From Nitrospinota bacterium (lineage in GTDB: Bacteria; UBA8248): a stretch of DNA of 64,000 nucleotides. Shown here one piece after another: positions 49,801-64,000 of this stretch. The notes below the pieces were generated by a model that saw only the letters and a program-made list of their open reading frames with translations, was not told the origin of the DNA and ran no database searches. Within the stretch, counting starts at the first letter, position 1, and every line of letters starts with the position of its first letter. Position numbers and translations under genes: made by a program. Where the stretch lies: positions 1-64,000 of the forward strand of contig JASLZZ010000026.1 in NCBI GenBank assembly GCA_030754595.1. The letters are read 5' to 3'.

Positions 49801-51009
49801 ACTTTCCATCTCGTTCGATAGGGACAACCAGTTGGCTCAGGATGCCCGCATTCGCGAAATCCTGCGCGCGGCGATAAGGAACCTTCCGTAGGTCTCCGTA
49901 AGTCAACGGGCTGCTCTTCTCGTATAATTCCCTGTACCACTCCAATCGGGAAACATCGTCGCTCTCCACCTGCGGGACTTTCACATCGGACTCGATATGC
50001 CAGTAATAAACTTCTTCGGTCTCAAAATTCACGGAACCAATGAACAACCGCTCGCAAGGGATAATTCGACGAATCTCGCGCGAAATCGTAGGAAAAAGAT
50101 CTTTCTCATGGAGAGATGAACCCAGGTCCCTGGCGATTCGGCCGACGACCTCCAGACGCTCGTTGGCCTCGCGCAGTTCATCGGCCGAAACTTCTAGCTC
50201 ATACGCATTTTCCTCCGCTTGCCGGAAAAGGTGGAACATGCTGACGAGCAGTCCCGTAAGAAAGAGAACGTAACTAACCTTCTTTAAAAGATGAGCGGCG
50301 TCGAACATAAAGTCGAATAGATGGCCGGAGAAGGACATGAATATCACCCGACCCAAGAAACCGACGATGATCGACATCACGAGCCAGTGTTCGAAATGAT
50401 CGTGCCGCTATTCGCCTTTCTTTATGTAGCAGATAAGGGCCAGGAGGAAGAAAACCGCGGGGACGAACTCCTCGGGCCGGTGAAAAACGAATTCGGGATA
50501 GTAAGCGCGGGGAAGCAGCGTGAAGGAAAAGAAGATGAAACTCACCACGGTCAAGACGGCGGCCAACCGATAAACCGCGTTCTCGCCGATCCGGCCTGCC
50601 TCTCCGAGGGATTGCTCTCTCCTCCACGACAGATAGCTCAAATTCAAAAATACGGCGAGAAACACGCGGGAGGCGACCCAGCTCCACGGGATGAGCGAAG
50701 GAGGGGGCGAAGGGAAATAGTTGTCAAAAACGAGGAGGTGACGATAGCGTGATAGCCGTCAAGAAATGCCGTGCCTAAAAAGGCCGTGCCGATGAAAAGG
50801 ATCGTGTTGTTTTTTTGGGAATAAAAACGAAGCAGCGCCAGTACCCCCACCGCCGAGGCCAGGAGCGTGGCGACGATTTCCATGATGGTGTAAAGTTCTT
50901 TGGTGCCCTGCCACGGCGAATCGCGCAAAAGGGTGTAGCCGACAAGGAGAAGGACGGACACCGAGAGGTAGGCGGCAACCCTTCCGCGGGAGTCTGTATA
51001 TAGATTCAT
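46880..51009 (-). pseudogene. Disrupted hybrid sensor histidine kinase (MASE3-like TM domain, 2xGAF, 2xPAS, HisKA, HATPase, 2xREC)
   Basis: Five ORF fragments join into one frame. The lesions are a 1-nt deletion in a T run at 50726-50730, TAG at 50408-50410 (KGE*RHDHFEHW), TAA at 48344-48346 (RMKN*FISVVSHEIRTPL) and TAA at 47648-47650 (in frame with the REC domains). Confidence 0.85.
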
Positions 51010-51243
51010 CCTTTGGCTCCGGGCTTCCTTGAACCGATTGGTTTCAGGATGCGAACGGCATGGCCCGCCGATACGCTTCAAAAAGCGAACGGCAAGGCCC
51101 GCCGCGGGCCTTTTTACCGCTTTTCGAGTCCGTCCATAAACCGGAATTTCGTTCATAAACAAGGGACTAAAGAGATTTCCGGCTCTTTTAATAGCGGTTT
51201 TCGTCGAGATCGAAATTTTCGCCCCACCCGAAATACTCACCCC

Positions 51244-53286
51244 CTACGCCCCAGGAAATGGAATGGCCTGCACAAATGCGTCCTGGAATTCCGGGTGCCC
51301 GGCCAACTCCACATTCCGTGTCATCACCTTGAGTTCGGCGGCCTGTGCGAGCTTCTCCCGGGACAGTAGCGCCAGGCGCCCTCCGCTTGCGGCCGCGTTG
51401 TGGACGATGCGGACCCTATCCTCGGGCAAAGGAGGAATCAGGCCGATACGGGCGGCGCGGCCGGACCGAAGGTGGGCGCCGAACGCCCCCGCGAGGAAAA
51501 CGGTTTCGAGTTCTCCCCATTCGATGCCCGCCTCGCGCAGCAAAATGTTCGCTCCCGCCATGACAGCCGCCTTGGCGCTTTGAAGCTTCCGCACATCCCA
51601 CTGGTCGAGGAAGATGTGAGACCCCGAAGCGGATCGCCCCGCCTCCTCCAGAATAAAACGGCGGACGCCGTCTTTTTCGACAATTCGGCGCCGGACGCTC
51701 TCCGGAACACCCTCGAGGGACTCCTCCGCCGGCAGGATTCGACCGGAATTGTCGATGACACCCAAATCCAGAAGGCACGCCACCACCTCGATAAGGCCGG
51801 TTCCACATATTCCCGCCGGGGGGGAGCTCTCAATCGTACGAAATTCTAGGTGATCCTCAATTACGTCGATCTCCGAGATTGCACCTGGAACCGAGGACAT
51901 ACCGCAACGAATCTCCCCTCCCTCGAAGGCGGGTCCGGCCGGCGTCGATGTGCACCAGAGATTTCCATCCTGACAGGCCAGGAGGATTTCAACATTGGTT
52001 CCCAGATCCAGGGCCAGAAGAGGCTTTTTCAACTCCTCACGGCCCAGGTCAAGCGCAAGAGCCACTCCCAGAGCGTCGGCCCCGACGAATCCGGCAATCA
52101 AGGGGAGAAAGTGCGCCCGCGCGGAAGAAGGAAGACGCACCCCCAGATCGGCGGGAGAGAACCCCATCCCTTCATCTTTTAGGGGAACGTAGGGCGCCAC
52201 TCCGAATGACTCCACCGGCAGTCCGAAGAAAAAATGGTGCATGACGCTGTTGCCAACGAAAATGAGGCTGATCATATCTCGCCTCCGCACCCGGGCCTGC
52301 CGCAAAAGATCGCCTAGGATTCGGTCAACATCCTCCCGGACGGCGGAGGTCAGCTCGTCCAACGCCTCCTTTCCGCCGTGTTCGCGCTGGGAGGCGGCAT
52401 GAACCCGCGCCATCAAGTCCCACCCCCAGGTCCGCTGGCTGTTGGGGCGAACGGCTTCGGCAAGAAGAGAGCCGTTAATGAGGTGAACGAGATAGCCGCA
52501 GATGTTCGTCGTCCCGATGTCGATCACCGCTCCATAGACCCGTTTTGAGGTGTCTCCAGCCTCGACATCCACAACCTCCCCTTCGGTGATCGTGAGTGAA
52601 ACCACCGAAGCCTCCTGATTCCAGAGGACCGCCTCGTTGAGCCTTAATACGATTTCCCCCTCGAGGCGCGGAAGCTCCTTCAGACGACCGCTTAGGCTCA
52701 TCTTCCTTAAACCACGCCGGATGGCCAATGCGGCGTCCTCTTCTACTGCGAGGTCTGAGCAAAAAGCGACCCTCTCCGCCCAGGGTTCCAGAAGGAGCGG
52801 AATGGATGTGTCAATGGATTTTCTGCCCACCTTGTCAGAAGGATGAGGGGCCAGGGCCGCGAGATCGCCTTCCACTTTCAACTGGCAGGCAAGACGCCAC
52901 CCAGCTCCAAGCTCTTCGGGACTCAATTGGTTTCGCTCTGCGGCGTTTGGGGGCGTCAGCCAGGAGGGGGGGTGAGGTCCGGGCCGATCCTTATCTCCAA
53001 GGGCAAGGGGAATGGCGCGGCATCGCGTGCATTTTCCGAACCCCCCGCATTCGGTGCCGATGGGAAATCCCGCGATACGCGCGGCTTCAAGGAGAGTCAG
53101 GCCCCCCTTGAGAGAAATCCGCCGGAGGGAGTAGTCTTCATCCGAAAGTTCCCCCGGAACTGCTGGGGGTTTCCCTGACTCGGGTGCGAGTGGCCGGAGG
53201 AGAAGGACCTCACAGGTCGTGGGGGACTCGTTTTCCACCCTTTGGGGATTAGCCTCAGTACCAGCCATGTTCCATCGCGGCTTCAA
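51244..53286 (-). CDS. RACo/RamA-type reductive activator of corrinoid proteins (2Fe-2S + ASKHA ATPase)
   Basis: CGGFGKCTRC...RLACQ, DIGTT, GFVGAD, DLGTNVE, AGPAFEG, GICGTG and LAGAFG. The start may be 53268. Confidence 0.9.
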   Translation of the reverse strand: MKPRWNMAGTEANPQRVENESPTTCEVLLLRPLAPESGKPPAVPGELSDEDYSLRRISLKGGLTLLEAARIAGFPIGTECGGFGKCTRCRAIPLALGDKDRPGPHPPSWLTPPNAAERNQLSPEELGAGWRLACQLKVEGDLAALAPHPSDKVGRKSIDTSIPLLLEPWAERVAFCSDLAVEEDAALAIRRGLRKMSLSGRLKELPRLEGEIVLRLNEAVLWNQEASVVSLTITEGEVVDVEAGDTSKRVYGAVIDIGTTNICGYLVHLINGSLLAEAVRPNSQRTWGWDLMARVHAASQREHGGKEALDELTSAVREDVDRILGDLLRQARVRRRDMISLIFVGNSVMHHFFFGLPVESFGVAPYVPLKDEGMGFSPADLGVRLPSSARAHFLPLIAGFVGADALGVALALDLGREELKKPLLALDLGTNVEILLACQDGNLWCTSTPAGPAFEGGEIRCGMSSVPGAISEIDVIEDHLEFRTIESSPPAGICGTGLIEVVACLLDLGVIDNSGRILPAEESLEGVPESVRRRIVEKDGVRRFILEEAGRSASGSHIFLDQWDVRKLQSAKAAVMAGANILLREAGIEWGELETVFLAGAFGAHLRSGRAARIGLIPPLPEDRVRIVHNAAASGGRLALLSREKLAQAAELKVMTRNVELAGHPEFQDAFVQAIPFPGA

Positions 53287-54415
53287 ACATCGCGCAGACG
53301 TTTTCGGGCGGCACCTCGTCCTGGATATTGTGGACGAAATTTAGAATGTAACCCCCGCCCGACGCCAAGTCATCAATGCGGCGTCTAACTTCCTCAAAAA
53401 CTTCCTCCGGCGTTCCAAAAGGAATGACACGCCCAGTATCGACCCCGCCCCAGAAGAAAAGATCCCGGCCGAATTCGCGTTTCAGGCGCGCGGTGTCCCC
53501 CATGTTCTTGGCAGAGACCTGAACAGGGTTCAGCCCATCAATCCCGATTTCAATTAAATGAGGAAGGAACATGTCAATGCACCCGTCACAGTGAAAAAGA
53601 ATTTTCGCGCCGGGGTCGGCTTTTTTCATCGATTCGAAATAAATCTTTAGCCGAGGTTTCACAAATTCCTCAAACATTTGCATCGAGACCATGGGGCCGC
53701 TTTGTGTGCCCAGATCGTCGCCCATGAGAACAACATCGATAAAACCTCTGGTCTCGGCCATCATACGTTCGGTAATTTCCAGGCGAATTTCGAGAATCCT
53801 GTCCAGCAGGGCGTGAACGAATTTTTTGTTCATTACGAGATCGGAGAAAAAATCTCCGAACCCGCGTATTCTCGCGGCTTCCTGCCAGAAAGTCGCGCGC
53901 GGCGAAAATACGACGGAATAATCGGTCTCCTCGTGGAGCTTACGCGCCCGTTCTCGAAGACCTCGGAAGCGCCCGGGGTCCTTCGGGTCGGGCCATTGAA
54001 ACTGACGGAGCGCCTCGAGCGTTCCGTTCTCGTCTCCCTCGAAGTGCCCTTTCAGCAAAAAATAGGAGTTCGATTCTTCGGGACGCTGCCACTGGATGCC
54101 CCATTCGTCCTGGTAAGTGAATGGGTCGATCTCGATATCCGTCCAGTTGTCCGGGGCACCGGGATCGAGAGGGCGAGTGTCGATCCCGAATTTCCGGAGG
54201 ATTTCCTCGTCGATATGAGCGACCTGTCCCTGCTTTGCCATGATGCGAGTTTCAGAATTTGACCCGAGATGCCGTTTCAGTTTTTCGTAGGCCATTCCCG
54301 CGATACTGGTAACCGCAGTAGAGCCGAAATCGAAGGGAACACGGTCGGGTTCCTTGTGTTCCATCGCCATGCGTACACGCTCGCGCGGCGTCAGGCTGGT
54401 TTTTTTTGACAACAC
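53255..54415 (-). CDS. UroD/MtaA-CmuA-family protein (putative corrinoid methyltransferase), copy 2
   Basis: EPDRVP, DEWG, GDDLGTQ, FHCDG, LNPVQ, FWGGVDT and HNIQ..VPPEN. Confidence 0.85.
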   Translation of the reverse strand: MLSKKTSLTPRERVRMAMEHKEPDRVPFDFGSTAVTSIAGMAYEKLKRHLGSNSETRIMAKQGQVAHIDEEILRKFGIDTRPLDPGAPDNWTDIEIDPFTYQDEWGIQWQRPEESNSYFLLKGHFEGDENGTLEALRQFQWPDPKDPGRFRGLRERARKLHEETDYSVVFSPRATFWQEAARIRGFGDFFSDLVMNKKFVHALLDRILEIRLEITERMMAETRGFIDVVLMGDDLGTQSGPMVSMQMFEEFVKPRLKIYFESMKKADPGAKILFHCDGCIDMFLPHLIEIGIDGLNPVQVSAKNMGDTARLKREFGRDLFFWGGVDTGRVIPFGTPEEVFEEVRRRIDDLASGGGYILNFVHNIQDEVPPENVCAMFEAAMEHGWY

Positions 54416-54445
54416 GAAATTTTTCTCCTGTCTCCAGGACGGCTC

Positions 54446-55606
54446 TCAGTATTCACCATATTCCAACGCCGCCTCGAACATCGCGCAGACGTTTTCGGGC
54501 GGCACCTCGTCTTGGATGTTATGGACGAAATTCAAAACATATCCCCCGCCTTCGCCCATATCGTCTATGCGGCGCTTCACTTCCTCAAAAACCTCGTCTC
54601 TAGTTCCGAAGGGAATGACGCGTCCCGTATCGACTCCACCCCAGAAGAAAAGATCCTGGCCGAATTCGCGTTTCAGGCGCTTGGTGTTCCCCATGTTCTT
54701 GGCCGAAACCTGCACCGGGTTCAGCCCATCAATCCCGATTTCAATCAGATGAGGAAGGAACATGTCAATACATCCGTCGCAATGATAGAGAATCTTCGCG
54801 TCGGGGGCTCCTTTTCTTACCGCGTCGAAGAGAATTTTCTGCCTGGGCTTTATGAACTCTTCGTACATCGGCACGGAGAGCATGGGACCGTTCTGCGTTC
54901 CAAGATCGTCGCCGGTGAGGATGACGTCCACATATCCATCGACTTCGACCAGCGACCGCTCGGTCATATCGAGGCGGATCTCGAGAAGTTTGTCGAGGAG
55001 TTCGTGGACGAATTTCTTGTTCGTAACCAAATCCGAGTAGAAATCGCCGAACCCGCGAATCCATTCGGCATCCGCCCAGAAGGTCGCGGCGGAAGTGAAC
55101 ACAACCGAATAATCCGTATCCTCGTGGAGCTTCCGAGCACGCTCGGCGAGCCCCCGGTAGCGCCCCGGGTCCTTCGGGTCGGGCCACTGGTAGCGGCGGA
55201 GCGCTTCGAGCGTTCCGTTTTCGTCCCCTTCCAAGCCTCCCTTGAGGAGAAAATAGGAGTTCGACTCCTCGGTCCGCTGCCACTGAACGCCCCACTCGTC
55301 CTGGTAGGTGAGTTCATCGACCTCGATGTCGCGCCAGTTGTCCGGGGCGCCAATCATGAGGGGGCGCGTATCCACCTGAAACTTTTCGAGAATACGTTCA
55401 TCGACGAAAGCCACCATGCCCTGTTTCGCCAGAATTTCCGTTTCGGATTCGACACCGAGATGTTTCTTCAACTTCTCGTAGGCCAAACCGGCGATGCTGG
55501 TGACCGCCGTGGAGCCGAAATCAAACGGAACGCGGTCGGGCTCCTTGTGATTCATCGCCCGGCGCATCCGCTCCCGCGGCGTAAGTTTTCCATTTGATGG
55601 GGTCAT
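54446..55606 (-). CDS. UroD/MtaA-CmuA-family protein (putative corrinoid methyltransferase), copy 1
   Basis: Same motifs (YHCDG) and the same length (386 aa) as its neighbour; a tandem paralogue. Confidence 0.85.
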   Translation of the reverse strand: MTPSNGKLTPRERMRRAMNHKEPDRVPFDFGSTAVTSIAGLAYEKLKKHLGVESETEILAKQGMVAFVDERILEKFQVDTRPLMIGAPDNWRDIEVDELTYQDEWGVQWQRTEESNSYFLLKGGLEGDENGTLEALRRYQWPDPKDPGRYRGLAERARKLHEDTDYSVVFTSAATFWADAEWIRGFGDFYSDLVTNKKFVHELLDKLLEIRLDMTERSLVEVDGYVDVILTGDDLGTQNGPMLSVPMYEEFIKPRQKILFDAVRKGAPDAKILYHCDGCIDMFLPHLIEIGIDGLNPVQVSAKNMGNTKRLKREFGQDLFFWGGVDTGRVIPFGTRDEVFEEVKRRIDDMGEGGGYVLNFVHNIQDEVPPENVCAMFEAALEYGEY

Positions 55607-55635
55607 GTTCCGTCCTCGCGTTGAATCCCGCCCGC

Positions 55636-56283
55636 TCAGGGCCGAAGCGCGGCGTGTAGTTCCTTGAACCGCTCCACCGCAAGCGGAGCTTCCTTGGCGT
55701 AACCGTTCGCCCCGATATTAGCCGCAAAAATCTCATCCAGCGGAGCGCCGCCCACCATGATTCCAACCTCCTCCCCGAAGGAAGCCTTACGAATAGTTTC
55801 GATGATGGCCCCCATCCGATTCATCGTTGTCGTTAGAAGGGCAGACATACCCAAAATACGGGCACCGGAGTTTTCGAGGGCTTCGATAAATTGTTCTGCG
55901 CTCGTATTGACGCCCAGGTCAATCACATCGAACCCCGCCCCACGAAGCATCATGCACACGAGATTCTTGCCGATATCGTGCATGTCGCCCTTAACGGTTC
56001 CCATCACCACCTTTCCCAGCGGCTCTACTCCCGTGGCCTCCAGCAGCGGCCGGAGAATCTCCATGGCCGCGTTCATTGCCTTGGACGCCGCCATGAGCTC
56101 GGGAATGAACACCTCGCCTCGCCCAAACTGATCCCCCAGTTTCTCCATTCCCGGACTCAATCCCTCATTCAGAATGGGGACCGGACCGCGGCCCGCCTCC
56201 AAGTCTTCCCGGACAAGGCGAATCACATTTTCCCGGTCCCCTCGAATGATTCCTTCAGTTAATTCCTGGTTACGAGACATCAT
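55636..56283 (-). CDS. Corrinoid (B12-binding) methyl-carrier protein
   Basis: Cap domain (GEVFIPELM), GDMHDIGKNLV (DxHxxG), MSALLTTTM and VGGAP. Confidence 0.93.
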   Translation of the reverse strand: MMSRNQELTEGIIRGDRENVIRLVREDLEAGRGPVPILNEGLSPGMEKLGDQFGRGEVFIPELMAASKAMNAAMEILRPLLEATGVEPLGKVVMGTVKGDMHDIGKNLVCMMLRGAGFDVIDLGVNTSAEQFIEALENSGARILGMSALLTTTMNRMGAIIETIRKASFGEEVGIMVGGAPLDEIFAANIGANGYAKEAPLAVERFKELHAALRP

Positions 56284-56296
56284 TCTCTCCCATCGC

Positions 56297-57211
56297 TTAG
56301 CTTTCCTCCGATCCTTGTTCTCCCGACCCCTTCATGGCTTCGATCATGGCCTGAATGTGCACGGGCGTGGTGCCGCAACATCCGCCAATGTAGCGGATAC
56401 CGAGGTCTGAACAACGCCTGGCGTGATCGGCCATCCGCTCCGGACCGGCCTCGTAGACAACTTGATTCCCTTCCATTTTGGGAACCCCCGCATTCGCCTG
56501 GATGATCAAGGGAAACCCGCTGGGGGCCCGGAACATTTTTCCCGCGATTTCCTCCATTTCATTCGGTCCGTTCCCGCAATTCGAACCGAACGCCTGAACC
56601 CCGAAACCGGCGACCGCCCTGACGGCCTCTTCCGGGGAGGTTCCCATCATTGTTCGTCCGTGCGTGTCGAAGGTCATTGTACAGAAAACGGGAAGATCGC
56701 ATACAGCCCTGGCGCCCTTGATCGCCGCGCGGACCTCCTCCAGATCGCTCATCGTTTCGATCAGAATGACATCCACGCCGCCTTCGGCAAGCGCGGCACA
56801 CTGCTCGGCAAAATCATCTTTCGCCTCATCGAAGTGAAGGTCGCCTAAAGGCTGCAAGAGGGAACCTGTGGGTCCCACCGAACCGGCGATGATCACCTCA
56901 CGTTCCTGGGCATCCGCTGCCTGTCGGGCGGCAGCGGCACCCGCCTTGTTCCACTCGAAAACCTTATCGCCGGCATCATGAAGTGCGAGACGGAGGCTGT
57001 TGCCCCCGAACGTGTTAGTCGTGATAACGTCGGAGCCTGCCCGAAGATAGGCCTCATGCACGGATCGGACCGCGTCCGGATTCTCTCCGTTGAGGCGCTC
57101 CGGTGCATCACCGGGTTCCAGTCCGGTAGCCTGGAGCATGGTTCCCATGGCGCCATCTCCCACAAGAACACCCTCTCCATCCAGCCATTTCTCATATAAT
57201 AAATTCGCCAT
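56297..57211 (-). CDS. Stand-alone homocysteine S-methyltransferase-domain protein
   Basis: DGAMGTML, TNTFG, IETM, Zn ligands GSNCG and GGCCG, and NAGVP. No pterin domain attached. Confidence 0.9.
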   Translation of the reverse strand: MANLLYEKWLDGEGVLVGDGAMGTMLQATGLEPGDAPERLNGENPDAVRSVHEAYLRAGSDVITTNTFGGNSLRLALHDAGDKVFEWNKAGAAAARQAADAQEREVIIAGSVGPTGSLLQPLGDLHFDEAKDDFAEQCAALAEGGVDVILIETMSDLEEVRAAIKGARAVCDLPVFCTMTFDTHGRTMMGTSPEEAVRAVAGFGVQAFGSNCGNGPNEMEEIAGKMFRAPSGFPLIIQANAGVPKMEGNQVVYEAGPERMADHARRCSDLGIRYIGGCCGTTPVHIQAMIEAMKGSGEQGSEES

Positions 57212-57316
57212 ATCGTCCTAAAGTGAGCAATATATTTTGGACGCAAGCATGATAGAAAACCATTCAGCGAAAATGGCCCATGCGGGGATATCACCCGCTC
57301 CGTGGATGGCCGAAAT

Positions 57317-58036
57317 CTAATCGTCGATCATGGCCACCGCACGCACGGGAGTACCCGAAATTCCCCGATACTTGATGGGGAGCACCGAGAGCTTGAAGCC
57401 GTGAGGATGGGGAATTTGATCAAGATTCACCAGGTTCTCCATGTGGCAATAGTCTTTCTCCAGCATGACCCGGTGGGCTTCATAGTAACGGCGCGTTTCG
57501 TGCATTTTCCAGATGGGAATGTCCCATCCGCTCGCGTCGATGCCCATCACCCGCACTCCGTTGTCGATCAAGTAATGGGACGCCTCGGCGCTCATGCCCG
57601 GTTGTTGGTCCAGAAAGTCCTCGCTTGTCTCCCAGTCTTTGCTGGCGCCGGTGTGGATGAGAACAATATCGAGGGGCTTCAGGGTGTAGCTGATTTTCTT
57701 CAAGGCTTCTTCTATGTCCGCCGCCGTGATCGCATAGCCGCTCTCTTTGTCCGTGAAGTCGAGAACGACACCGTCCGAGAAGCACCACTCCAGCGGAATC
57801 CGCTCCGTGGTAAACCCGTCGGGATTCGTATGGAAAGGCGCATCGATATGCGTTCCCGCATGGTCGCTCATGAAAATGACAAAATGGTTCGGTACGATGT
57901 CCGCGCCGTATTTATCCGTCCCCAGGCGCTTGGCCACAGTCTGCCAGTCTTCGTCCAGAGCCAGGTTCGGTCCGGGCAGGCCAGGATAGATGGGCATCCC
58001 TCGGTAGAGTTCCATGCTTAAATCTATTATCCGCAT
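57317..58036 (-). CDS. Cyclase-family (kynurenine formamidase-like) metal hydrolase
   Basis: IIDLS, HAGTHIDAPFH, GID, ENLVNL and PVRAVA. Confidence 0.9.
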   Translation of the reverse strand: MRIIDLSMELYRGMPIYPGLPGPNLALDEDWQTVAKRLGTDKYGADIVPNHFVIFMSDHAGTHIDAPFHTNPDGFTTERIPLEWCFSDGVVLDFTDKESGYAITAADIEEALKKISYTLKPLDIVLIHTGASKDWETSEDFLDQQPGMSAEASHYLIDNGVRVMGIDASGWDIPIWKMHETRRYYEAHRVMLEKDYCHMENLVNLDQIPHPHGFKLSVLPIKYRGISGTPVRAVAMIDD

Positions 58037-58118
58037 ACCTTTCTCCTTTCATAACGGCATATAAGCCCCGATCAAAACCGGGGTGGATTTTTCATGGCTC
58101 GGATGCGGCAAAGCCGCC

Positions 58119-60464
58119 TTAGGGGGGCTCTTCGGCCCGGTACATCTTGCAGAGGATCCCGCGCAACTGAGGCCCTCCATAGAGAGGGTCGAAACCCTGC
58201 CCCGGGTCGTTGCGCGTGATGACATTCTGGTTCGAGATCCGGAAACCGTAATCGGGTCCCTCACGCTCGGGATACCACCAGCAGGTCTGGCTACACACAA
58301 CGCGAGGATGAAGACCTCCGGAAACCCTGGCGCGCTGACGGATCTTCCCCTGTTTCGTCTCTATCCATACCCAATCGCCATCCGCGACATCGAGCTCACC
58401 CGCGGTATCCGGGTGGAGTTCGACGAGAGGGTCGGGGTTTCGCTTCCGAAGCTCGGGTATTTGATGGTGCTCGGAGTGAAAGAATTCCGGGGTTCTCCGG
58501 CTCGTCAATATCAGCGGATACTCCCGCGCCAACTCTTCGTTCAGGGGAGTCTCCTCAGGGGGCTCCACGTAAAACGGAAAGGGATCGTGGCCCGAGAGAC
58601 GAAAAGTGCTCTGGAAGACCTCTACCCGCCCAGTGGGAGTCGGGAATCCGCCTCCATTCCGGAAGTAGTCGGTTTCATATTTCCGGTAGTGCTGGGGGAA
58701 GAGCACGTTCCCCTTTTCCTTGAATTCTTCCCAGGTGAGACCCGCCCCTTTTATCCGCCAGTCGAGATACTCTCCGGTGGTTTTCCAAGGGAAAGCCTCG
58801 TCGAGCCCAAGCCTATTGGCTAGTTCCAGAAGAATGTCCTCATCGTCCCGGCACTCACCGGGCGGCTCTGTCACCTTTTTTCGCGCAAACATGCCGAACC
58901 GGTAGTAGGGACCGTTAATCTGTTCTCGCTCGAGCCACGTGGTCGTGGGAAGAATCAGATCGGACAGGGCCGCTGTCGGTGTCATAAAAAGATCAACGCA
59001 CAGCGAGAAAGGAATCTTGTGCATCACCTTTTCAGCCGTATCGGAGTTTTCCGCCGAGAGGAGAAAGTTGTGGCCGATGATGAAGAGGACTTGGGGGATG
59101 AGCTCGCCCGAGACGATAGCACGGTTGACGAGCGAACCGTGTGTCATGCCGAGGATGGGAAACTGACCGGCTCCGTAGCGGTCCTGCATCTTTTTGGAAC
59201 CTTCGGGCAGCTGCATGGGCCTGTCGTGCTCGGGCGAGAAAGGATCGACCCACGGGCCCTGCTCCCAAATTGCCATACCGCCGGGCACGTCGAGGTTTCC
59301 TGTCAGGGCCATCAGGAGAATCGCGGACTGCATCGCTTGGGAATTGTTCACTCCCTGGTGATCCAGGGCATCGCCCCATTGAATGACGGCGGGTTTCGTC
59401 GTGCCAAAGAGAAGCGCGGCCTCTCGGATCTTCTCTGCGGGAATCCAAGTGATTTCACTGACTCTTTCAGGCGTGTATTGACAAACCCTCTCCTTGAAAA
59501 ATTCCCAGGCGGGACGGACGGATACATCGTCAACTACATACCGGCCCGTGAGTGCGGGCCGCGTGCATTCATCGGGGCGAACTGCTTTTTCTTTTTCCGC
59601 GTCCCATACCCGGAAGCCGTCCTCGCTATCGTCCCCGTCCTGGACGAACAGATTCTCCGAATCCTCCCGGACGAGGTATGGGGCGTTTGTCCAACGGGCG
59701 GCGAAGTCGAGGGCGAAAAGTCTTGCCTCGAGGAGAACATGGAGAAAACCGAGAGCTAGCGCACCGTCGGTGGCGGGCCGAATCCGGAGCCAGTGATCGG
59801 CTCGCTTTGCCCAGTGGGTCTCAACCGGGTCGATGACGATGAGCCGGGCGCCCGCCTTGAGAGCGGGGGTGAGTCGGCCTCCGATCATGCCGTCGGCATT
59901 GTTGAAGGGGTCGTTTCCCCAGATGAGGATGCAGCTGGGAAGCCGGCCGCCGAAACCATAAAAGTCGGCGACGGGAATCTTGGTGCCGAGGGTATGCTTG
60001 CAGACCGAGATCCGGGGAAAGTAGCAAAGAGGAGAGCGTCCGACGTTGAGGACGGCGCCCAATGCGTTGAAAAAACGATTGCCGAAATTGTTCCACTCGC
60101 GGCCCGTGCCGCATGCTTTTGCAATGTATTCCGGGCCATGTGTTTCGATGGTCTCCCTGCACTTAGCCTCGACCAGATCGAGCGCCTCTTTCCACGAGAT
60201 ACGCTTCCACTTCCCCGAACCGCGGGGGCCATCCCGGAGAAGAGGATAAAGGAGTCGATCGGGGTGTCCGGAATACGAAATCGATGCGCGCCCCTTCGGA
60301 CAGATGTAGCCCAAGTTAGTGATGCAATCGGGGTCGCCCTTGATTTTCTTGGCAACTCCACCCTCGACTGTGACAAGAACACCGCATGACCCATGGCACA
60401 TACGGCACATGGTTCGGATGGTTTGAGTGGAGGAAGCCGACGGAGAGGACTCTGCACGCATCAT
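58119..60464 (-). CDS. Mo/W-bisPGD oxidoreductase (DMSO reductase family, acetylene-hydratase-like), cytoplasmic
   Basis: 4Fe-4S motif CRMCHGSC...CPKG, HPDRLLYPL, RISWKEAL, probable Cys ligand in SPLCYFP, GNLDVPGG and FFHSEH. No Tat RR signal. Confidence 0.9.
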   Translation of the reverse strand: MMRAESSPSASSTQTIRTMCRMCHGSCGVLVTVEGGVAKKIKGDPDCITNLGYICPKGRASISYSGHPDRLLYPLLRDGPRGSGKWKRISWKEALDLVEAKCRETIETHGPEYIAKACGTGREWNNFGNRFFNALGAVLNVGRSPLCYFPRISVCKHTLGTKIPVADFYGFGGRLPSCILIWGNDPFNNADGMIGGRLTPALKAGARLIVIDPVETHWAKRADHWLRIRPATDGALALGFLHVLLEARLFALDFAARWTNAPYLVREDSENLFVQDGDDSEDGFRVWDAEKEKAVRPDECTRPALTGRYVVDDVSVRPAWEFFKERVCQYTPERVSEITWIPAEKIREAALLFGTTKPAVIQWGDALDHQGVNNSQAMQSAILLMALTGNLDVPGGMAIWEQGPWVDPFSPEHDRPMQLPEGSKKMQDRYGAGQFPILGMTHGSLVNRAIVSGELIPQVLFIIGHNFLLSAENSDTAEKVMHKIPFSLCVDLFMTPTAALSDLILPTTTWLEREQINGPYYRFGMFARKKVTEPPGECRDDEDILLELANRLGLDEAFPWKTTGEYLDWRIKGAGLTWEEFKEKGNVLFPQHYRKYETDYFRNGGGFPTPTGRVEVFQSTFRLSGHDPFPFYVEPPEETPLNEELAREYPLILTSRRTPEFFHSEHHQIPELRKRNPDPLVELHPDTAGELDVADGDWVWIETKQGKIRQRARVSGGLHPRVVCSQTCWWYPEREGPDYGFRISNQNVITRNDPGQGFDPLYGGPQLRGILCKMYRAEEPP

Positions 60465-60658
60465 ACGGAATCCTTATCATTGCCTTAGATGCTCGAAATG
60501 GGTCTGTCCGCGAACTGGGAAATTAGCCAGTCCAAACAATAGACTACTACGTCCTATTTACAAGCCTGTCCTGTGCATGGAGAATCGGAAATTCTAGCTG
60601 ATAATCATACTTTTCCTCGCCTTGCGTCGAAAGGCAATTCTTCCAAACTTCTCCCGCC

Positions 60659-60820
60659 ATGCCGATTCTTTTCCTGAACCAGACTCTATTCTTGAACAAA
60701 CGCGATCCGGAAGAGAAACCGGGAGAGTTTCAGGATTACTACAACGTCCATCGGGTTCATAAAGCCCTGAATCTAAAAACCCCCGAGGAAGCCGCCGGGA
60801 AAAAGATGAGAGAGCTCCGC
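60659..60820 (+). pseudogene. Relic of an integrase-core (rve) transposase C-terminus
   Basis: FLNQTLFLNKRDPEEKPGEFQDYYNVHRVHKALNLKTP matches the YN..R.H..L...TP tail of DDE/rve transposases; no upstream catalytic part is visible. Confidence 0.6.
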
Positions 60821-60821
60821 G

Positions 60822-61793
60822 CTATTTACGGATGGTGCCGAAGCTGAAACCCGTGATGAGGTGTTTCTGGATCAGGACGCCGAGGATGACAACTGGGATG
60901 GTGATCACTGTGCCAATCGCCGCCTGGGGGCCGTATAGCCTTCCCTCGACCGCGCTCTGGAATTTATTGAGCAGGACGGGAAGAGTGGACACATTCGGCT
61001 GAGTCAGCGTCAGAGCGAGCAAAAACTCGCTCCAGTTCAGGATGAAGATGAAAAGGAAAGTCACCACCATCCCCGGAGCGACCAGGGGGATAACCACGCG
61101 GCGGAGGGTATAGAGCCGGCTCGCCCCCATGATCCGTGCGGCATGCTCGAGGGTGTAGGGCACTTCATCGATGAAACTCAGCATCATCCAGATGACGAAA
61201 GGAAGCGTTGTCGCGGTGTAGAGGAGCCCTAAGCCAATATAAGTGTCTATCAGAGTAAACCGGAAGCCGAAAACCGCCTCGGTCGCGAACGGTATCAGTA
61301 TGGCATAGTACATCACGATGGGAATCGCGATGACGATGGGCGGGACCATCCGGATGGTCAGGATCATGTAGCGGAAATACTTCCCCCCGACACTGAACCG
61401 GGAAATCGAGTAGGCCAGAAACGTCCCCAGCAGAAGCGCGGCCAGGGAGCTGAGGGAGGCGATGAACATCGAGTCGCCCACCGCGCCCCAGATGTTGTAG
61501 GCCTGCTCGGTGGCCTCACGGCTGAGCTTCTCGCCAAGCGCGCTGAATGTGAAAATCTGCTGGTAGTTATACAGAGTGGGCTCGTAGCCCCCGCCGACAA
61601 AGGAGGGAAACCAGTTCGGCGGCCAGGCGACCCAGTCGCCCGAGTCCTTGAAGGAGGTCGAGATCATCCAGAAGATCGGAAACACGACGATGGAGGCCCA
61701 GCCCAGCAGCACGGCGTGCCGAAACCAGGAGAAAAGGTTGTGGCGTTTGGCAAAGGAAGCATCCGGTCGGTTCCCACCCGCTGGGTTTTTCAT
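60822..61793 (-). CDS. CUT1 (carbohydrate-type) ABC transporter permease (MalG-like)
   Basis: FPIFWMISTSFK, EAA-like LEHAARIMGA and FILNWSEFL. Confidence 0.9.
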   Translation of the reverse strand: MKNPAGGNRPDASFAKRHNLFSWFRHAVLLGWASIVVFPIFWMISTSFKDSGDWVAWPPNWFPSFVGGGYEPTLYNYQQIFTFSALGEKLSREATEQAYNIWGAVGDSMFIASLSSLAALLLGTFLAYSISRFSVGGKYFRYMILTIRMVPPIVIAIPIVMYYAILIPFATEAVFGFRFTLIDTYIGLGLLYTATTLPFVIWMMLSFIDEVPYTLEHAARIMGASRLYTLRRVVIPLVAPGMVVTFLFIFILNWSEFLLALTLTQPNVSTLPVLLNKFQSAVEGRLYGPQAAIGTVITIPVVILGVLIQKHLITGFSFGTIRK

Positions 61794-62761
61794 GAGCCCT
61801 GCTCCTCTTCGACGATGGACCGTTCCCGGACGAGCAGATGAATTCCGTAGAAGATGAGCCCCGCGAACATGAAGAGCAGCAGGACCGATGCCGCCGCGCC
61901 GAAACTGTACTTATTGAACTGCCACACCTGGCGCCAAAGGAAGAACGCGATGGTTTCGGTCGAAGTACCGGGGCCGCCGAAGGTGAGCAACACAGAAAGA
62001 TCGAAAAGTTTGAGCGCCTCCATCGACCGGATGACGACGGCGATGACGATCGCGGGTTTGAGTAGCGGCAGATGGATCCGCCAGAAAATTTGCCACCGGG
62101 TCGCGCCCAGGATTCGGGCGGCGTTGGTGAGCTGCTGGGGTAGCGCGGTGAAGCCGGAGAGAAAAATCAGGAACGTCAACGAAGTCCACTGCCAAACATC
62201 GGCGAGAATAATCGCCCACTGCGCGGCGATGGGGTGGGAGAGCCAGCGGATACGGGGATTGACCCCGAGAGCTTCCGTGATCGGAGACAAAACCTGGTTG
62301 AGCGGGCCCGAGTCGATGTAGATCATCGAAAAGTTGTAGCCCGCGACAACAGGAACCACCATCATCGGAATCAGGAAAATGGTGATGTATAACCTCCGGC
62401 CATTGAACTGCTTATAGACCAGCATGGCGAGCAGAAACCCGAGAATGAGCTCGATGAGGACCGCCGTTCCCGCGAAGTAAAACGTCCGCCCCACCGCCCA
62501 CCAAAAATCCTCGTCGCCGAGGACGCGGACATAATTTAATAAGCCGTGAAAATAGGCCCTCTCGAACGGCCGGCTGGCGCGCCATTTGAGGAGGCTGATA
62601 TAAATCGTCAGAATGAAAGGAATGGCGAGAAGGAGGAGGAAAACTCCCTCCACCATTATAAACGGAATGAGGCGGAACACCCGCTCCTGCCCCAGCCAGG
62701 TGGCCAAACGCCCCCTTCCGGAGGGCTGCCCTCGAGGTTTCTTTACAGCCGCTTGAGCCAT
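61790..62761 (-). CDS. CUT1 ABC transporter permease (MalF-like)
   Basis: GLLNY, ADVWQWT, AARILGATRWQIFWRIHLPLL and GGPGTSTET. Confidence 0.9.
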   Translation of the reverse strand: MAQAAVKKPRGQPSGRGRLATWLGQERVFRLIPFIMVEGVFLLLLAIPFILTIYISLLKWRASRPFERAYFHGLLNYVRVLGDEDFWWAVGRTFYFAGTAVLIELILGFLLAMLVYKQFNGRRLYITIFLIPMMVVPVVAGYNFSMIYIDSGPLNQVLSPITEALGVNPRIRWLSHPIAAQWAIILADVWQWTSLTFLIFLSGFTALPQQLTNAARILGATRWQIFWRIHLPLLKPAIVIAVVIRSMEALKLFDLSVLLTFGGPGTSTETIAFFLWRQVWQFNKYSFGAAASVLLLFMFAGLIFYGIHLLVRERSIVEEEQGS

Positions 62762-62782
62762 CGAATTCGTCTTTATCCCGGT

Positions 62783-62825
62783 GCCGGCCGCTGCCGGCCC
62801 CCGCTCAACCGCCGAAGGAGCGGGG
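62783..62825. other. GC-rich stem-loops between the binding-protein and permease genes
   Basis: GCCGGC-CGCT-GCCGGC and CCCGCTC-N11-GAGCGGG without a U tract; a typical position for an mRNA-stabilising hairpin. Confidence 0.45.
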
Positions 62826-62857
62826 ACCGACGCGATCCAGTATGATTCCTTGATCTC

Positions 62858-64000
62858 CTAGAACTTGTCGATATAAGCGCCGCTGTTCACGCTCTTGCGC
62901 CAGGCTTTGATCTGGTCTTTGCGGCCAATATCGTCGGTGACCTTGTTCCAGCCCTTCTCGATGTTCTTCGCGGCCGCCTCGGCCGAGATGTTGCCCTGCA
63001 TGACCTGGGCGAGGTTCTTGTCGAGTACGTTGAAGTACTCGTAGTTGCCCTCGATCATCAGAAGCGAGATCGCGTTTTTCGCGTTTTTCATCGTCATCTT
63101 GACAAACGGCTCAGTGTGCTTGGCGAGGACGGCCTTGTTCGTCAGGTTCGACTTCCGCATCGGATCCCAGAAGCCCTTGGGATCGGCGATGGCCTCGTCA
63201 CCCTTCGTCGGACCTGTGAGCCACTGGATGTAGTAGTAGGCGAGTTCAGGGTGCTTGCTGTGGCGGTTCACCATGTAGCCGGTGCCGGCCGCCTGGGGTG
63301 CCCGGCGGACCATTTTGCCGCCCACCTTCACGGCCGGAACCGGACAGGCCAGCTGCTTGCCGCTAATCTTGCTCTTGGGGCTCCGGTTGGCATAGCCCAT
63401 GGCCGAGGGGAACGACATGAACGAGAAGGCCTGGCCGCTACCCCAGTGAGGATAAAGCTGCGGGGTTCCCCAGCCCTGAACATCGGGGGGCATGTACTTC
63501 ACGATCGAGGAGAACTCCTTGATGGCCCGGATGCCGTTCGGGGTGTTGACTTGGGGTTTCATGTTCTTGTCGAAGAGCAGGGCCCCCATATAGGCCGGGA
63601 AGTGGCGGTAGGAGAAGTTGATGCTCCGATACGCCTGGGCGCCATAGAGGGGCTCGTTGAACTTTTTGCCCCAGCGGGTCTGGCCTTTCTTCGTGTGGAA
63701 GAACTTCGCCATCTGCTCCCACTCGGCCATCGTCTCCGGACAACCCGGCTCCTTACCAAACTTCGCCTTATATTCCGAGGCGCCCAGTTTCATGATGTCC
63801 GTGCGCAGAAACAGGGCGATGTGGTCGCCGTCGAGTATGAACCAGTAGTGTACTCCGTTGTAGGTCTGCTGGGCGAGAAGTCCGGGGTCGATGCCCGAGA
63901 AATCGGGCTTGCCCTTTTTCGCGAATCCATCGAGCGGCTGTAGCACGCCCGCCCCCGCGGCGTCCGGTATGACATAGGGGAAGTGGTTGATGATGTCGTA
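62858..64000 (-). CDS. ABC transporter extracellular solute-binding protein (5' end outside the window)
   Basis: The frame is open to 64000. Lys-rich SBP-like sequence (PETMAEWEQMAKFF, SKHPELAYYYIQWL) upstream of two permeases. Confidence 0.85.
   Translation of the reverse strand, partial: YDIINHFPYVIPDAAGAGVLQPLDGFAKKGKPDFSGIDPGLLAQQTYNGVHYWFILDGDHIALFLRTDIMKLGASEYKAKFGKEPGCPETMAEWEQMAKFFHTKKGQTRWGKKFNEPLYGAQAYRSINFSYRHFPAYMGALLFDKNMKPQVNTPNGIRAIKEFSSIVKYMPPDVQGWGTPQLYPHWGSGQAFSFMSFPSAMGYANRSPKSKISGKQLACPVPAVKVGGKMVRRAPQAAGTGYMVNRHSKHPELAYYYIQWLTGPTKGDEAIADPKGFWDPMRKSNLTNKAVLAKHTEPFVKMTMKNAKNAISLLMIEGNYEYFNVLDKNLAQVMQGNISAEAAAKNIEKGWNKVTDDIGRKDQIKAWRKSVNSGAYIDKF

Follow-up and report, generated by a model that had tools for sequence, protein, structure and literature searches.

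A conserved UroD-corrinoid-homocysteine methyltransferase gene module in Nitrospinota, plausibly a folate-independent route of methyl transfer to homocysteine

In the MtgBCDE/RamA systems of Phaeobacter inhibens and Ruegeria pomeroyi, as described in the available parts of PMC5764234 and PMC12478193, a stand-alone homocysteine (Hcy) S-methyltransferase (MtgE, PF02574), an MtgC-type corrinoid protein and the reductive activase RamA/RACo are accompanied by the MttB-family protein MtgB, the pterin-binding MtgD, MetF2 and DUF1638, and one corrinoid protein is common to substrate demethylation and methionine formation (PMC12478193). In the corrinoid O-/S-/halide demethylases whose substrate-side (MT1) or acceptor-side (MT2) methyltransferase belongs to the UroD superfamily (MtaA/MtbA/MtsA, CmuA, OdmB/VdmB/MtvB and CdmB), the gene for a UroD-fold methyltransferase stands beside those for a corrinoid protein and an activase, and MT2 is a pterin-binding or second MtaA-like protein. 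The mlp clusters (Kountz & Balskus) encode no folate methyltransferase, according to the available part of bioRxiv 10.1101/2023.07.31.551370. In methionine synthase MetH, the Hcy, pterin, B12 cap and Rossmann domains are joined in one protein, which is reactivated through a SAM-dependent activation domain.

Here we describe a Nitrospinota locus that shares features with each of these systems. It shares the stand-alone PF02574 protein, the MtgC-type corrinoid protein and RamA/RACo with MtgBCDE/RamA, and a dual use of the corrinoid protein is likewise proposed, but MtgB, MtgD, MetF2 and DUF1638 are lacking, a UroD-fold protein takes the place of the normally MttB-type substrate:corrinoid methyltransferase (MT1), and the host retains a full MetH. 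Like the mlp clusters it encodes no folate methyltransferase, and unlike the UroD-type systems it would use a MetH-type Hcy domain as MT2. Its Hcy, cap and Rossmann domains have homologues in MetH and the chemistry of the second half-reaction would be the same, whereas its parts are separate proteins without a pterin domain and are reactivated by RACo.

The window, i.e. the whole stretch of 64,000 nucleotides analysed, comes from a marine Nitrospinota genome (G000) that is 96.9% complete. Seven ORFs on the minus strand (51244-60464) encode, in order, a cytoplasmic acetylene-hydratase-like Mo/W bis-MGD enzyme of 781 aa (58119..60464; Molybdopterin, Molydop_binding and Fe4S4 domains), a cyclase-family metal hydrolase of 239 aa (57317..58036; PF04199, 8.2e-39), a stand-alone, MtgE/'Bhmt'-like Hcy S-methyltransferase domain protein of 304 aa (hcy, 56297..57211; PF02574 only, 2.2e-75), a corrinoid protein of 215 aa with cap and Rossmann domains (cor, 55636..56283; B12-binding_2 and B12-binding), two UroD-fold proteins of 386 aa each (uroA, 54446..55606; uroB, 53255..54415; URO-D, PF01208) and a RACo/RamA-type reductive activase of 680 aa (raco, 51244..53286), in which an N-terminal 2Fe-2S ferredoxin domain (Fer2) precedes RACo_middle and RACo_C_ter. 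The successive intergenic gaps are 82, 105, 13, 29 and 30 bp, with a 32-bp overlap between uroB and raco. Gene order, orientation and coordinates agree with the first-pass annotation, as do the domains it named, and neither a pterin-binding methyltransferase (PF00809) nor an MttB-type MT1 was found among the seven genes. A contig from an independent DNA run (X14, record 7) covers 54735-58838, from UroD-A through cor, hcy and the cyclase into the Mo gene, so the arrangement is no assembly artefact.

A terminator-like hairpin lies 3' of raco (51089..51105, minus strand), within an ORF (50644-51240) that is itself unsupported, having no family above cut-off and no tblastn match in relatives. Upstream of the cluster, a CUT1-type ABC transporter on the same strand (60822..63946; a solute-binding protein and two permeases by Pfam) is followed by another terminator-like hairpin (60801-60780); it is a possible substrate uptake system.

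The hcy-cor-uro-raco portion (51244-57211) is intact in five other species (G050, G037, G012, G010 and G039) and is cut by contig ends at three further loci, while G008 has only cor-uro pairs, two in number. UroD-A homologues (E<=1e-60) occur in 10 of the 51 species genomes of the phylum, G000 included, and the order cor-uro-raco is kept in at least eight Nitrospinota-type loci, the UroD gene invariably lying between cor and raco with gaps of 29-30 bp or an overlap. UroD-A and UroD-B are 77-78% identical, and the duplication is common to G000, G050 and G037; other relatives have a single copy. Judged by this conservation of gene order, the functional unit is hcy-cor-uroA-uroB-raco, comprising five genes here and four in most relatives, and by domain content it is a full four-part corrinoid methyl-transfer system with all canonical parts present. 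Comparison across Nitrospinota genomes therefore supports the view that the genes for these proteins form a conserved unit. The activase of the cluster is the sole PF14574 gene in G000.

Immediately 5' of hcy, about 95 bp of the intergenic region (57212..57316, minus strand) match locus L009 of a relative, where both the Mo and the cyclase gene are lacking, and synteny then stops (alignment A4). In alignments with more distant relatives this conservation was not found. The region is a candidate promoter/operator of the module itself and marks the synteny breakpoint.

The first-pass annotation had also placed the Mo enzyme and cyclase in the same pathway, where they would either generate the methylated substrate or act on what is left after demethylation. 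The co-orientation and short gaps fit this view, no terminator-like site was found on the minus strand between the Mo gene and raco, and contigs from RNA libraries (X19 and X20, one sample, 0-2 differences), which may contain DNA, overlap raco, uroA/cor, hcy/cyc and Mo in part and cross the junctions at 57206-57356 (cyc-hcy) and 57815-58070. The arrangement is also repeated in G050. However, G050 is a sister species of the same genus with proteins 93-99% identical, and is thus no independent case. Neither gene lies upstream of hcy in G037, G012 or G010, the three other genomes whose sequence extends at least 5.7 kb beyond hcy on that side. These hold only Mo paralogues of 37-40% identity, while Mo orthologues (71-73%) occur in G042 and G007 with no module adjoining. 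Among the loci compared, only the sister species has the pair beside the module; absence of the pair from corrinoid genes elsewhere is what the first-pass annotation had named as speaking against a common pathway. The Mo/W proteins form a paralogous family in the phylum, with up to 10 copies per genome at 35-43% identity.

By sequence comparison, the cyclase gene is a conserved gene's recent paralogue. Another copy, 76% identical, is found at G000:C5 in a cluster with genes for a hydantoinase, a CoA-ligase-domain (FdrA-like) protein, AllG, an amino-acid-kinase-family protein and an amidase, and, among the matches listed, copies at 76-78% identity are present in at least 19 of the 23 genomes of genus g3, from which the module is absent, all 23 having a match. 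The arylformamidase model TIGR03035 gives it 60.8 bits, below the cut-off of 223. The closest solved relative of the Mo/W enzyme is the acetylene hydratase of Pelobacter acetylenicus (2e7z, E 1.8e-97), with which it shares an N-terminal CxxCxxxC motif, the aligned metal-ligand Cys and the lack of a twin-arginine leader, but it has His24 at the position of the hydratase Asp13. Together with the retention of the hcy upstream region independently of both genes, this distribution leaves the seven-gene pathway unsupported and unlikely; the Mo enzyme and cyclase appear from their occurrence to be local, lineage-specific neighbours outside the conserved module. A local functional link is possible because no terminator-like site was found between Mo-cyc and hcy on the minus strand and RNA-library contigs bridge cyc-hcy, and Mo-cyc transcription may read through into the module in the G000 lineage.

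The Hcy protein and corrinoid protein are, by homology, of the stand-alone MtgE/MtgC split-methionine-synthase type described in the available parts of PMC5764234 and PMC12478193. The Hcy protein is 47-56% identical to stand-alone proteins of metagenomic MttB-RACo-corrinoid-HcyMT-DUF1638-MTHFR-pterin MT clusters, which match the published MtgBCDE/RamA system (PMC12478193, available part), and the corrinoid protein, with the DxHxxG motif D100-x-H102-x-x-G105, is 44-47% identical to those of six aligned loci bearing an Hcy methyltransferase relative. MttB is shown in two of these six loci, L065 and L113. The closest solved relative of the Hcy protein is the Hcy domain of Thermotoga maritima MetH (1q7m, 1.5e-52), and its zinc cysteines C212, C278 and C279 are invariant in the alignment. 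The Hcy protein and corrinoid protein are each 32% identical to the corresponding MetH domains of G000. From these similarities, the Hcy protein is proposed to be the MT2, catalyzing methyl transfer from the methyl-corrinoid to homocysteine.

The split MetH of P. inhibens likewise consists of an Hcy domain, a corrinoid protein and a RamA-like activase (PMC5764234, available part), and the corresponding parts here might form an ordinary split methionine synthase, supplied with CH3-THF by a pterin module elsewhere or by the pterin domain of MetH, with the UroD genes as passengers or auxiliaries. Relatives of the Hcy protein occur in 80 metagenomic loci, of which 8 also contain a pterin-binding gene and 20 contain a corrinoid gene. 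Across the whole G000 genome, however, PF00809 was found in just two proteins, a full-length MetH (C116) and a FolP encoded next to FolC (C79), and neither MttB (PF06253) nor DUF1638 had a match. G037, G012 and G010 have two PF00809 matches each, one inside a long MetH frame and the other stronger or partial (174-273 bits) and FolP-like by score only, and both matches in G039 lie within MetH-type frames; by score, these four genomes likewise show no separate pterin-binding methyltransferase. Full-length MetH occurs in G000 and in 41 of 41 other genomes of the family, which would make another folate-dependent synthase superfluous. This and the constant wedging of a UroD gene between cor and raco make an ordinary split synthase very unlikely. 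A separate CH3-THF:corrinoid methyltransferase, which would have undercut the idea of folate-independent transfer, is thus not seen in G000. The presence of metH argues against the module being the methionine synthase of its host.

The UroD-fold protein A is proposed, from fold and gene context, to be the MT1. Its AF2 model (pLDDT 88) fits MtaA (4ay7, 17-18% identity) and UroD about equally well. The family profile has MtaA 4ay7 as its top match (E 4.9e-8), with CdmB (9rui) at only E 0.041, and the scores of 43-53 bits against MtaA/CmuA models are far under the cut-offs of 235-244, so similarity to these enzymes is remote. UroD-A H275-x-D277...H362 aligns with the H-x-C...C positions of MtaA, its zinc ligands; H275 and H362 are invariant in the family and position 277 is Asp or Cys. 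The cysteines that bind zinc in MtaA are missing from the UroD proteins. The predicted complex of cor and UroD-A scores 0.87 (best of three controls, 0.00), passing a mark that 116 of 157 solved complexes attain, against 2 of 215 mismatched pairs. Three runs share at least 94% of contacts with partner pLDDT of at least 91, and the modelled interface takes in the DxHxxG loop and the barrel mouth near H362. The model supports binding of the corrinoid protein to UroD-A, though the pass may partly reflect likeness, because similar methyltransferase-corrinoid protein complexes have already been solved.

More distant UroD homologues (37-46% identity) in Chloroflexota lie in carbohydrate-utilization loci. 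Sugar transporters, GntR/FCD regulators, aldolases, kinases or glycoside hydrolases neighbour the homologue in 13 of the 15 fetched loci (a scan covering 73 of 120 neighbouring ORFs), CUT1 permease homologues lie 0-3 kb from UroD-like genes in three of the 15, and just one of the fetched stretches includes a corrinoid gene, which suggests that the wider family may be corrinoid-independent. Loci L014-L016 have similar sugar-type surroundings. This context, and the decarboxylase activity of UroD itself, are consistent with the UroD-fold proteins being metal-dependent decarboxylases or other sugar or sugar-acid enzymes whose corrinoid link is incidental. Against this stand the cor-uro-raco order of the Nitrospinota-type loci, the two additional cor-uro pairs of G008, the cor/UroD-A complex model that beats its controls, and corrinoid genes 7 kb from UroD-like genes at L016 and L190, both in one Chloroflexota genome; we regard such a role as most improbable. 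For a UroD-type MT1, the same context offers a weak lead to a methoxy compound as methyl donor, perhaps one that is O-methylated and carbohydrate-like.

The roles of the two methyltransferases might also be reversed or split, with the PF02574 protein acting as MT1 or using a sulfonium or betaine compound (DMSP, S-methylmethionine or glycine betaine) as its direct methyl donor and the UroD proteins acting as MtaA-like MT2 on another acceptor, e.g. a thiol. The best NCBIfam model of the Hcy protein is that of betaine-homocysteine methyltransferase (NF005718, 317 bits, slightly under the cut-off of 338), and the UroD family has an MT2, MtaA, as its nearest solved relative. The MtgE homologue Bmt of P. 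inhibens, when purified, is reported to use DMSP or betaine for direct, B12-independent methylation of Hcy (PMC12366255, available part), so the Hcy protein might also act alone, and MtaA-like clusters without folate methyltransferase have been proposed to function in methyl-S/Se metabolism (bioRxiv 10.1101/2023.07.31.551370, available part). However, the Hcy protein is far nearer the MetH Hcy domains (182 bits) than solved BHMT (86 bits), and the residues with which human BHMT binds betaine are missing from MtgE-type proteins, according to the available part of PMC12478193. A B12-independent reaction would moreover leave the conserved corrinoid protein and activase pointless. The UroD family has His/Asp/His in place of the His/Cys/Cys of the thiol-activating MtaA. 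Reversed or split roles are thus decidedly unlikely.

Given the conserved unit and the lack of a pterin-binding methyltransferase beyond MetH and FolP, the simplest reading is that a non-folate methyl group passes via the corrinoid to homocysteine, a folate-independent transfer that is plausible on sequence grounds. In this scheme, RACo would reduce the corrinoid protein to Co(I), the UroD-fold protein(s) would transfer methyl from the donor compound to Co(I) as MT1, and the MetH-like zinc-dependent Hcy domain would pass it on as MT2, forming methionine without methyl-THF. We give this four-part system with a UroD-type MT1, accessory to MetH and separate from the Mo enzyme and cyclase, a probability of about one half. 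The proposed transfer from UroD to corrinoid to homocysteine thus keeps its conserved unit and its missing folate arm, but gives up the role of methionine synthase to the full MetH. The combination is also less without precedent than first thought, as Hcy module, corrinoid protein and RamA/RACo are already known together (PMC5764234 and PMC12478193, available parts); relative to the split methionine synthase or MtgC-MtgE system, what is new is confined to the UroD-fold MT1 and the lack of a folate arm. With MetH in G000 and in each of the 41 other genomes of the family, the module would be an accessory methyl-scavenging route next to normal MetH, while the Mo enzyme and cyclase would be a separate gene pair that came to sit upstream of it in one genus.

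Seven minus-strand ORFs at 51244-60464 carry the same Pfam assignments as in the first-pass annotation. In order of transcription they encode a Mo/W bis-MGD enzyme with an N-terminal Fe4S4 domain (58119-60464), a cyclase-family protein (57317-58036; PF04199, 133.5 bits), a homocysteine S-methyltransferase domain with no other domain attached (hcy, 56297-57211; PF02574), a corrinoid protein with cap and B12-binding domains (cor, 55636-56283; PF02607 and PF02310, with the motif D100-x-H102-x-x-G105), two URO-D family proteins of 77-78% mutual identity (UroD-A, 54446-55606, and UroD-B, 53255-54415) and a RACo-type activase with a ferredoxin domain (raco, 51244-53286; Fer2, Raco_middle and RACo_C_ter). 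The intergenic gaps are 82, 105, 13, 29 and 30 bp, and UroD-B and raco overlap by 32 bp. One contig from an independent DNA run spans 54735-58838, so the gene junctions are not an assembly accident.

The last five genes recur as a module in related genomes. A UroD-A homologue (threshold E≤1e-60) is present in 10 of the 51 species genomes of the phylum, that of the window (G000) counted, and the stretches fetched around such homologues were searched with all cluster proteins by tblastn. The complete order hcy-cor-uro-raco is found in the sister species G050 (L008) and in G037 (L009), G012 (L043), G010 (L044) and G039 (L045). Copies cut by contig ends retain a partial hcy with cor, uro and raco (L010), cor, uro and raco (L011) or uro and raco (L012), and G008 has two cor-uro pairs adjoined by neither hcy nor raco. 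Two UroD copies are restricted to G000, G050 and G037; the other carriers have a single copy, which indicates that one UroD protein is enough. The ∼95 bp 5′ of hcy (57212-57316) are conserved with G050 and G037, with invariant blocks in the alignment (A4), and similarity ends beyond them. They are preceded by the cyclase gene in the window and by no cyclase gene in L009; with the neighbours differing, this conservation is independent of the cyclase, and the conserved unit thus begins just upstream of hcy. In relatives beyond these closest ones no conservation of the region was found. It could be a promoter or operator; a TGG...GC spacing resembling a -24/-12 element occurs in two of the three aligned sequences.

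The first-pass annotation proposed a single seven-gene pathway, in which the acetylene-hydratase-like Mo/W enzyme and the cyclase prepare the methylated substrate or process the demethylated product. Both genes adjoin the module only in G050 (same genus, proteins 93-99% identical). Other genes occupy the 5.7-7.7 kb upstream of hcy in G037 (AcrB and a HAMP sensor), G012 (an amidase and an ABC transporter) and G010 (a sigma-54 activator, a flavoprotein and YceI), genomes in which Mo paralogues reach only 37-40% identity, and Mo orthologues (71-73% identity) occur in G042 and G007 with no UroD module beside them. The coupling is therefore not supported, co-occurrence with the corrinoid genes being confined, among the genomes compared, to the window's and that of its sister species.

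The Mo/W protein has the cluster motif of acetylene hydratase, the bis-MGD fold and the metal-ligand Cys (Pfam; alignment to 2e7z), and no twin-arginine leader was found in it. Asp13 of acetylene hydratase, a catalytic residue adjacent to the second cluster cysteine, aligns instead with His24 of the window's protein. Pyrogallol-phloroglucinol transhydroxylase was rejected as its identity (4v4c, E = 9.2e-6, versus 1.8e-97 for acetylene hydratase). The family is paralogous, with three copies in G000 and ten matches in G008 (35-43% identity); a copy in G002 (63-74% identity) is broken into five in-frame pieces. Relatives lie near xanthine-dehydrogenase-family enzymes, amidohydrolases and a CN-hydrolase, and in G001 a 32% Mo paralogue has a 44% cyclase homologue directly upstream. 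The cyclase, one of at least six paralogues in G000, does not reach the equivalog cut-off of the kynurenine formamidase (arylformamidase) model TIGR03035 (60.8 bits against 223). A 76% identical copy elsewhere in G000 (C5, L172 8085-8801), with relatives of up to 78% identity (also L171), belongs to a conserved cluster encoding a fused hydantoinase/oxoprolinase A+B (1324 aa), a CoA-ligase-domain (FdrA-like) protein, AllG, an amino-acid-kinase-family protein and an amidase. Among the matches listed, cyclase copies at 76-78% identity occur in 19 of 23 genomes of one genus free of the UroD module, and any cyclase match in 23 of 23. In our reading the Mo/W enzyme and cyclase form an uncharacterised catabolic pair of their own, whose substrate may be a nitrogen-containing compound; leaving them out avoids a misleading seven-gene pathway annotation.

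Terminator-like hairpins on the minus strand follow the ABC permease gene (60801-60780) and raco (51105-51089), with none between them. A sigma-70 promoter scan gave no minus-strand match at 50400-61000, and an Rfam scan at gathering thresholds (window, L009 and L043-L045) returned only 6S RNA (24614-24794, minus strand, 73 bits) and two minus-strand tRNA genes (32684-32755 and 38909-38990), with no riboswitch or RNA leader. Contigs from two RNA libraries of one sample (0-2 differences) cover 52388-52579, 53107-53280, 55427-55731, 57206-57356, 57815-58070 and parts of the Mo gene, bridging the uroA-cor and hcy-cyclase junctions. As these libraries possibly contain DNA and the contigs are strandless, they give a mere hint that the locus is expressed, possibly with read-through from the Mo and cyclase genes. 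The raco hairpin lies within an ORF at 50644-51240 (minus strand, 198 aa). No family reaches its cut-off in this ORF and relatives have no match to it; it is probably not a real gene. The genes immediately following the module (46880-50380, minus strand) encode a PAS/GAF sensor (678 aa), a separate HisKA/HATPase protein (228 aa) and a response regulator with two receiver domains (255 aa); sensor and kinase look like one histidine kinase split at 48334/48344. Beyond this two-component system, 4.4 kb downstream of the module, 45121-46833 (plus strand) encodes a fumarylacetoacetase-family protein and an Amidohydro_2 protein whose best NCBIfam model, a weak match, is L-fucono-1,5-lactonase (L-fuconolactonase); the two may be parts of a sugar-acid pathway. 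Elsewhere the window carries housekeeping genes (aaRS, Lon, ClpXP, trigger factor, RNase Y, methylmalonyl-CoA mutase).

The nearest solved structure to the Hcy protein is the Hcy domain of T. maritima MetH (1.5e-52), with BHMT far behind (2.5e-23), and the zinc cysteines C212, C278 and C279 are invariant in 25 sequences. Among NCBIfam models the protein scores best with NF005718 ('betaine-homocysteine S-methyltransferase'), its 317.1 bits falling below the cut-off of 338. In the corrinoid protein, H102 and G105 of the DxHxxG motif are invariant and D100 nearly so (alignment A3). Each of the two proteins is 32% identical to the genome's own MetH, and hence neither is a copy of it.

A metagenome scan with an alignment of the stand-alone Hcy family yields 80 loci, in which tblastn detects a corrinoid gene in 20, RACo in 15, a pterin-binding protein in 8 and a weak cyclase-like match in 1; UroD or Mo homologues were found in 0 of the 80, many of the contigs being short and only 19 having at least 2.9 kb upstream. 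On long contigs the order, resting on Pfam assignments of 26 ORFs from seven loci (L065, L071, L079, L082, L083, L091 and L113), is MttB - (EamA) - RACo - corrinoid protein - Hcy-MT - (DUF1638) - MTHFR_C/MTHFR - pterin-binding methyltransferase. NF005718 is passed by all three metagenome Hcy proteins tested (340-374 bits); MttB is seen in two of their loci, L065 and L113, the upstream flank of L082 being too short. This cluster corresponds to the published MtgBCDE/RamA/MetF2 system, mtgE being part of the operon. In its genetic description, the split methionine synthase of Phaeobacter inhibens comprises PF02574, PF00809 and corrinoid proteins with a RamA-like DUF4445 protein and DUF1638 (PMC5764234). 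A later study of Ruegeria pomeroyi MtgBCDE describes one corrinoid protein serving both glycine-betaine demethylation and methionine synthesis, and reinterprets the S. meliloti 'Bhmt' as the Hcy module MtgE (PMC12478193). By this match, the pairing of a stand-alone Hcy domain with a corrinoid protein and an ATP-dependent activase is already known.

The window's module differs in lacking an MttB-type donor:corrinoid methyltransferase (MT1), a pterin-binding protein (MtgD), MTHFR and DUF1638, and in having a UroD-fold protein between the corrinoid protein and the activase. The module is a variant of the described MtgC/MtgE/RamA system, and what is new is the UroD fold of the putative MT1 and the missing folate arm. 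A literature search, O-demethylase and methylated-sugar work included, found no description of the combination of UroD, homocysteine S-methyltransferase and corrinoid protein, in Nitrospinota or otherwise.

The host genome (3.55 Mb, 138 contigs, 96.9% complete, 6.4% contamination) encodes one full-length MetH (a frame of 1250-1260 aa with PF02574 and PF00809), three core-MetE-like PF01717 frames and a single RACo, the cluster's own. Outside MetH its one PF00809 gene is dihydropteroate synthase (FolP), adjoining FolC; this protein (on C79) was considered as a hidden CH3-THF methyltransferase and rejected, scoring 298 bits as DHPS against a cut-off of 163. No match to MttB (PF06253) or DUF1638 was found in this 96.9% complete genome. 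The lack of a pterin-binding methyltransferase and of MttB, noted at first pass for the cluster, thus extends genome-wide apart from MetH and FolP, and a separate CH3-THF:corrinoid methyltransferase gene is absent from a host that does have MetH and MetE-like genes. The genome also has two full-scoring genes for HemE, the true uroporphyrinogen decarboxylase (434 bits each; C123:31766-32764 and C87:2649-3656), which reflect a duplication or else belong to the 6.4% contamination.

Full-length MetH is present in 46 of the 51 phylum genomes and in all 41 other genomes of the window's family, every module carrier there included, which rules out the module as a sole methionine synthase with a distribution complementary to MetH. 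In G008 full-length MetH gave no match at E≤1e-50. Relatives also have stand-alone PF02574 genes at a distance from the module (G037:C172:1893-2723 and G008:C1:413610-414431). In each of G037, G012 and G010, PF00809 is matched by the MetH frame and at a second place, where the match is high-scoring or partial and FolP-like by score; G039 has two matches, both MetH-type. Since the module carriers of the family keep MetH, and the PF00809 proteins of G000 and these four genomes are limited to MetH and FolP (verified for G000, judged by score in the others), the module is no substitute for MetH and lacks a folate arm. This speaks against an ordinary split MetH, in which methyl-THF would be the donor, and for a side route giving foreign methyl groups to homocysteine. 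As homocysteine is regenerated only through the use of SAM, we infer that such a route fits methyl assimilation better than bulk catabolism.

The UroD-fold proteins belong to a very large family, with at least 5,449 proteins at E≤0.001 among 8,000 candidates examined (word-indexed search), mostly 45-50% identical; source names among the matches listed include Tectomicrobia, Nitrospinota, NC10/Methylomirabilota, Chloroflexi and Spirochaetales. The ESM Atlas has them only as 'URO-D family protein' clusters, Chloroflexota being the commonest. The MtaA/CmuA models TIGR01463 and NF004889 are not reached (43.6-52.7 bits, cut-offs 235-244). A 27-member profile matches MtaA best (4ay7, 4.9e-8) and then true UroD, with CdmB at just 0.041, and the AlphaFold model of UroD-A (pLDDT 88.4) resembles solved MtaA and solved UroD to about the same degree. 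H-x-C...C is the zinc triad of MtaA; in the profile alignment its His corresponds to the invariant H275 and its second Cys to the invariant H362. Position 277 varies, with Asp in the clade that includes the window's proteins and Cys in other subclades. The window's proteins thus have H275, D277 and H362 where MtaA has His-x-Cys...Cys, and from this alignment a metal site at the barrel mouth is likely, its composition unlike that of the thiol-activating enzymes.

When the corrinoid protein is modelled in complex with UroD-A, the score is 0.87, and that of the best of three controls 0.00; 116 of 157 solved complexes attain the mark set for this score, as do 2 of 215 mismatches. At least 94% of contacts are shared between runs (partner pLDDT at least 91), and the modelled interface places the corrinoid DxHxxG loop and cap against the UroD-A barrel mouth beside H362. 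Because comparable complexes have been solved, the score measures likeness to a methyltransferase-corrinoid pair and is not proof of binding.

By a four-part test for a corrinoid methyl-transfer system, the corrinoid protein and a single ATP-dependent activase are present, and the PF02574 and UroD-fold proteins stand in conserved order; in our reading the UroD-fold protein would act as MT1 and the PF02574 protein as MT2 (methyl-corrinoid:acceptor methyltransferase), both being putatively active. The best available reading, to which we give a probability of about 0.5, is that the module is a corrinoid system passing methyl groups to homocysteine without folate. The gene observation and the methyl-transfer core of the first-pass proposal are thereby retained, the latter at these even odds, and its link to the Mo/W enzyme and cyclase is not supported.

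Gene context offers a single, weak lead to the methyl donor. Neighbours of the module vary by genome and include a CUT1 ABC transporter (window), TRAP, branched-chain-type and Opp-type transporters, an M24 creatinase/prolidase-like protein, an amidase and peptidases. The lead comes from more distant UroD-like homologues in Chloroflexota (37-46% identity), which 6 of the 151 genomes sampled contain in as many as seven copies. Loci L179-L193 and L014-L016, from genomes G051, G052, G053, G073, G113, G154 and G198, carry such homologues. Carbohydrate-utilisation genes surround the UroD homologue in 13 of the 15 fetched Chloroflexota loci (73 of 120 neighbouring ORFs scanned), encoding CUT1, CUT2 and MFS sugar transporters, GntR/FCD regulators, DHDPS- and KDPG-type aldolases, kinases, SDRs and GH5. 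In three of the 15, homologues of the CUT1 permeases encoded in the window are 0-3 kb away from the UroD gene. The loci L014-L016 are similar, and in L016 the co-directional cluster also contains another UroD-like gene and a corrinoid gene. This carbohydrate context fits O-methylated sugars as the compounds demethylated. It is equally compatible with a wider UroD family that is not corrinoid-dependent, as a corrinoid gene is found in just 1 of the 15 fetched stretches, on the same scan of 73 of 120 neighbouring ORFs.

For the Nitrospinota module itself we retain folate-free transfer through the corrinoid protein to homocysteine as the proposed route. Its nearest public loci (UroD-A identity 73-97%) are in MAGs labelled Nitrospinota or Nitrospinae, except one labelled 'bacterium' only and one Tectomicrobia. 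A near-identical stretch occurs in 18 marine or seawater DNA runs from at least nine studies (at least four further studies when possible sources are left out), indicating that the organism is widespread. A broader proposal, doubtful at present, is that the UroD family with its His-x-Asp/Cys...His site comprises corrinoid-dependent demethylases of O-methylated carbohydrates or related methoxy compounds, wired in marine Nitrospinota (presumed nitrite-oxidising autotrophs) to a MetH-type homocysteine module, by which a scavenged methyl group would become the methyl of methionine and SAM without a folate step. If this were true, it would add a new mixotrophic trait and a new class of MT1.

If the module works as inferred, the link between demethylation and methionine synthesis known from MtgBCDE would extend to a second, unrelated MT1 fold, in a version wholly without a folate arm. 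Marine Nitrospinota would then be spared the cost of methyl-group synthesis, and the very large unannotated UroD-like family would gain its first functional handle.
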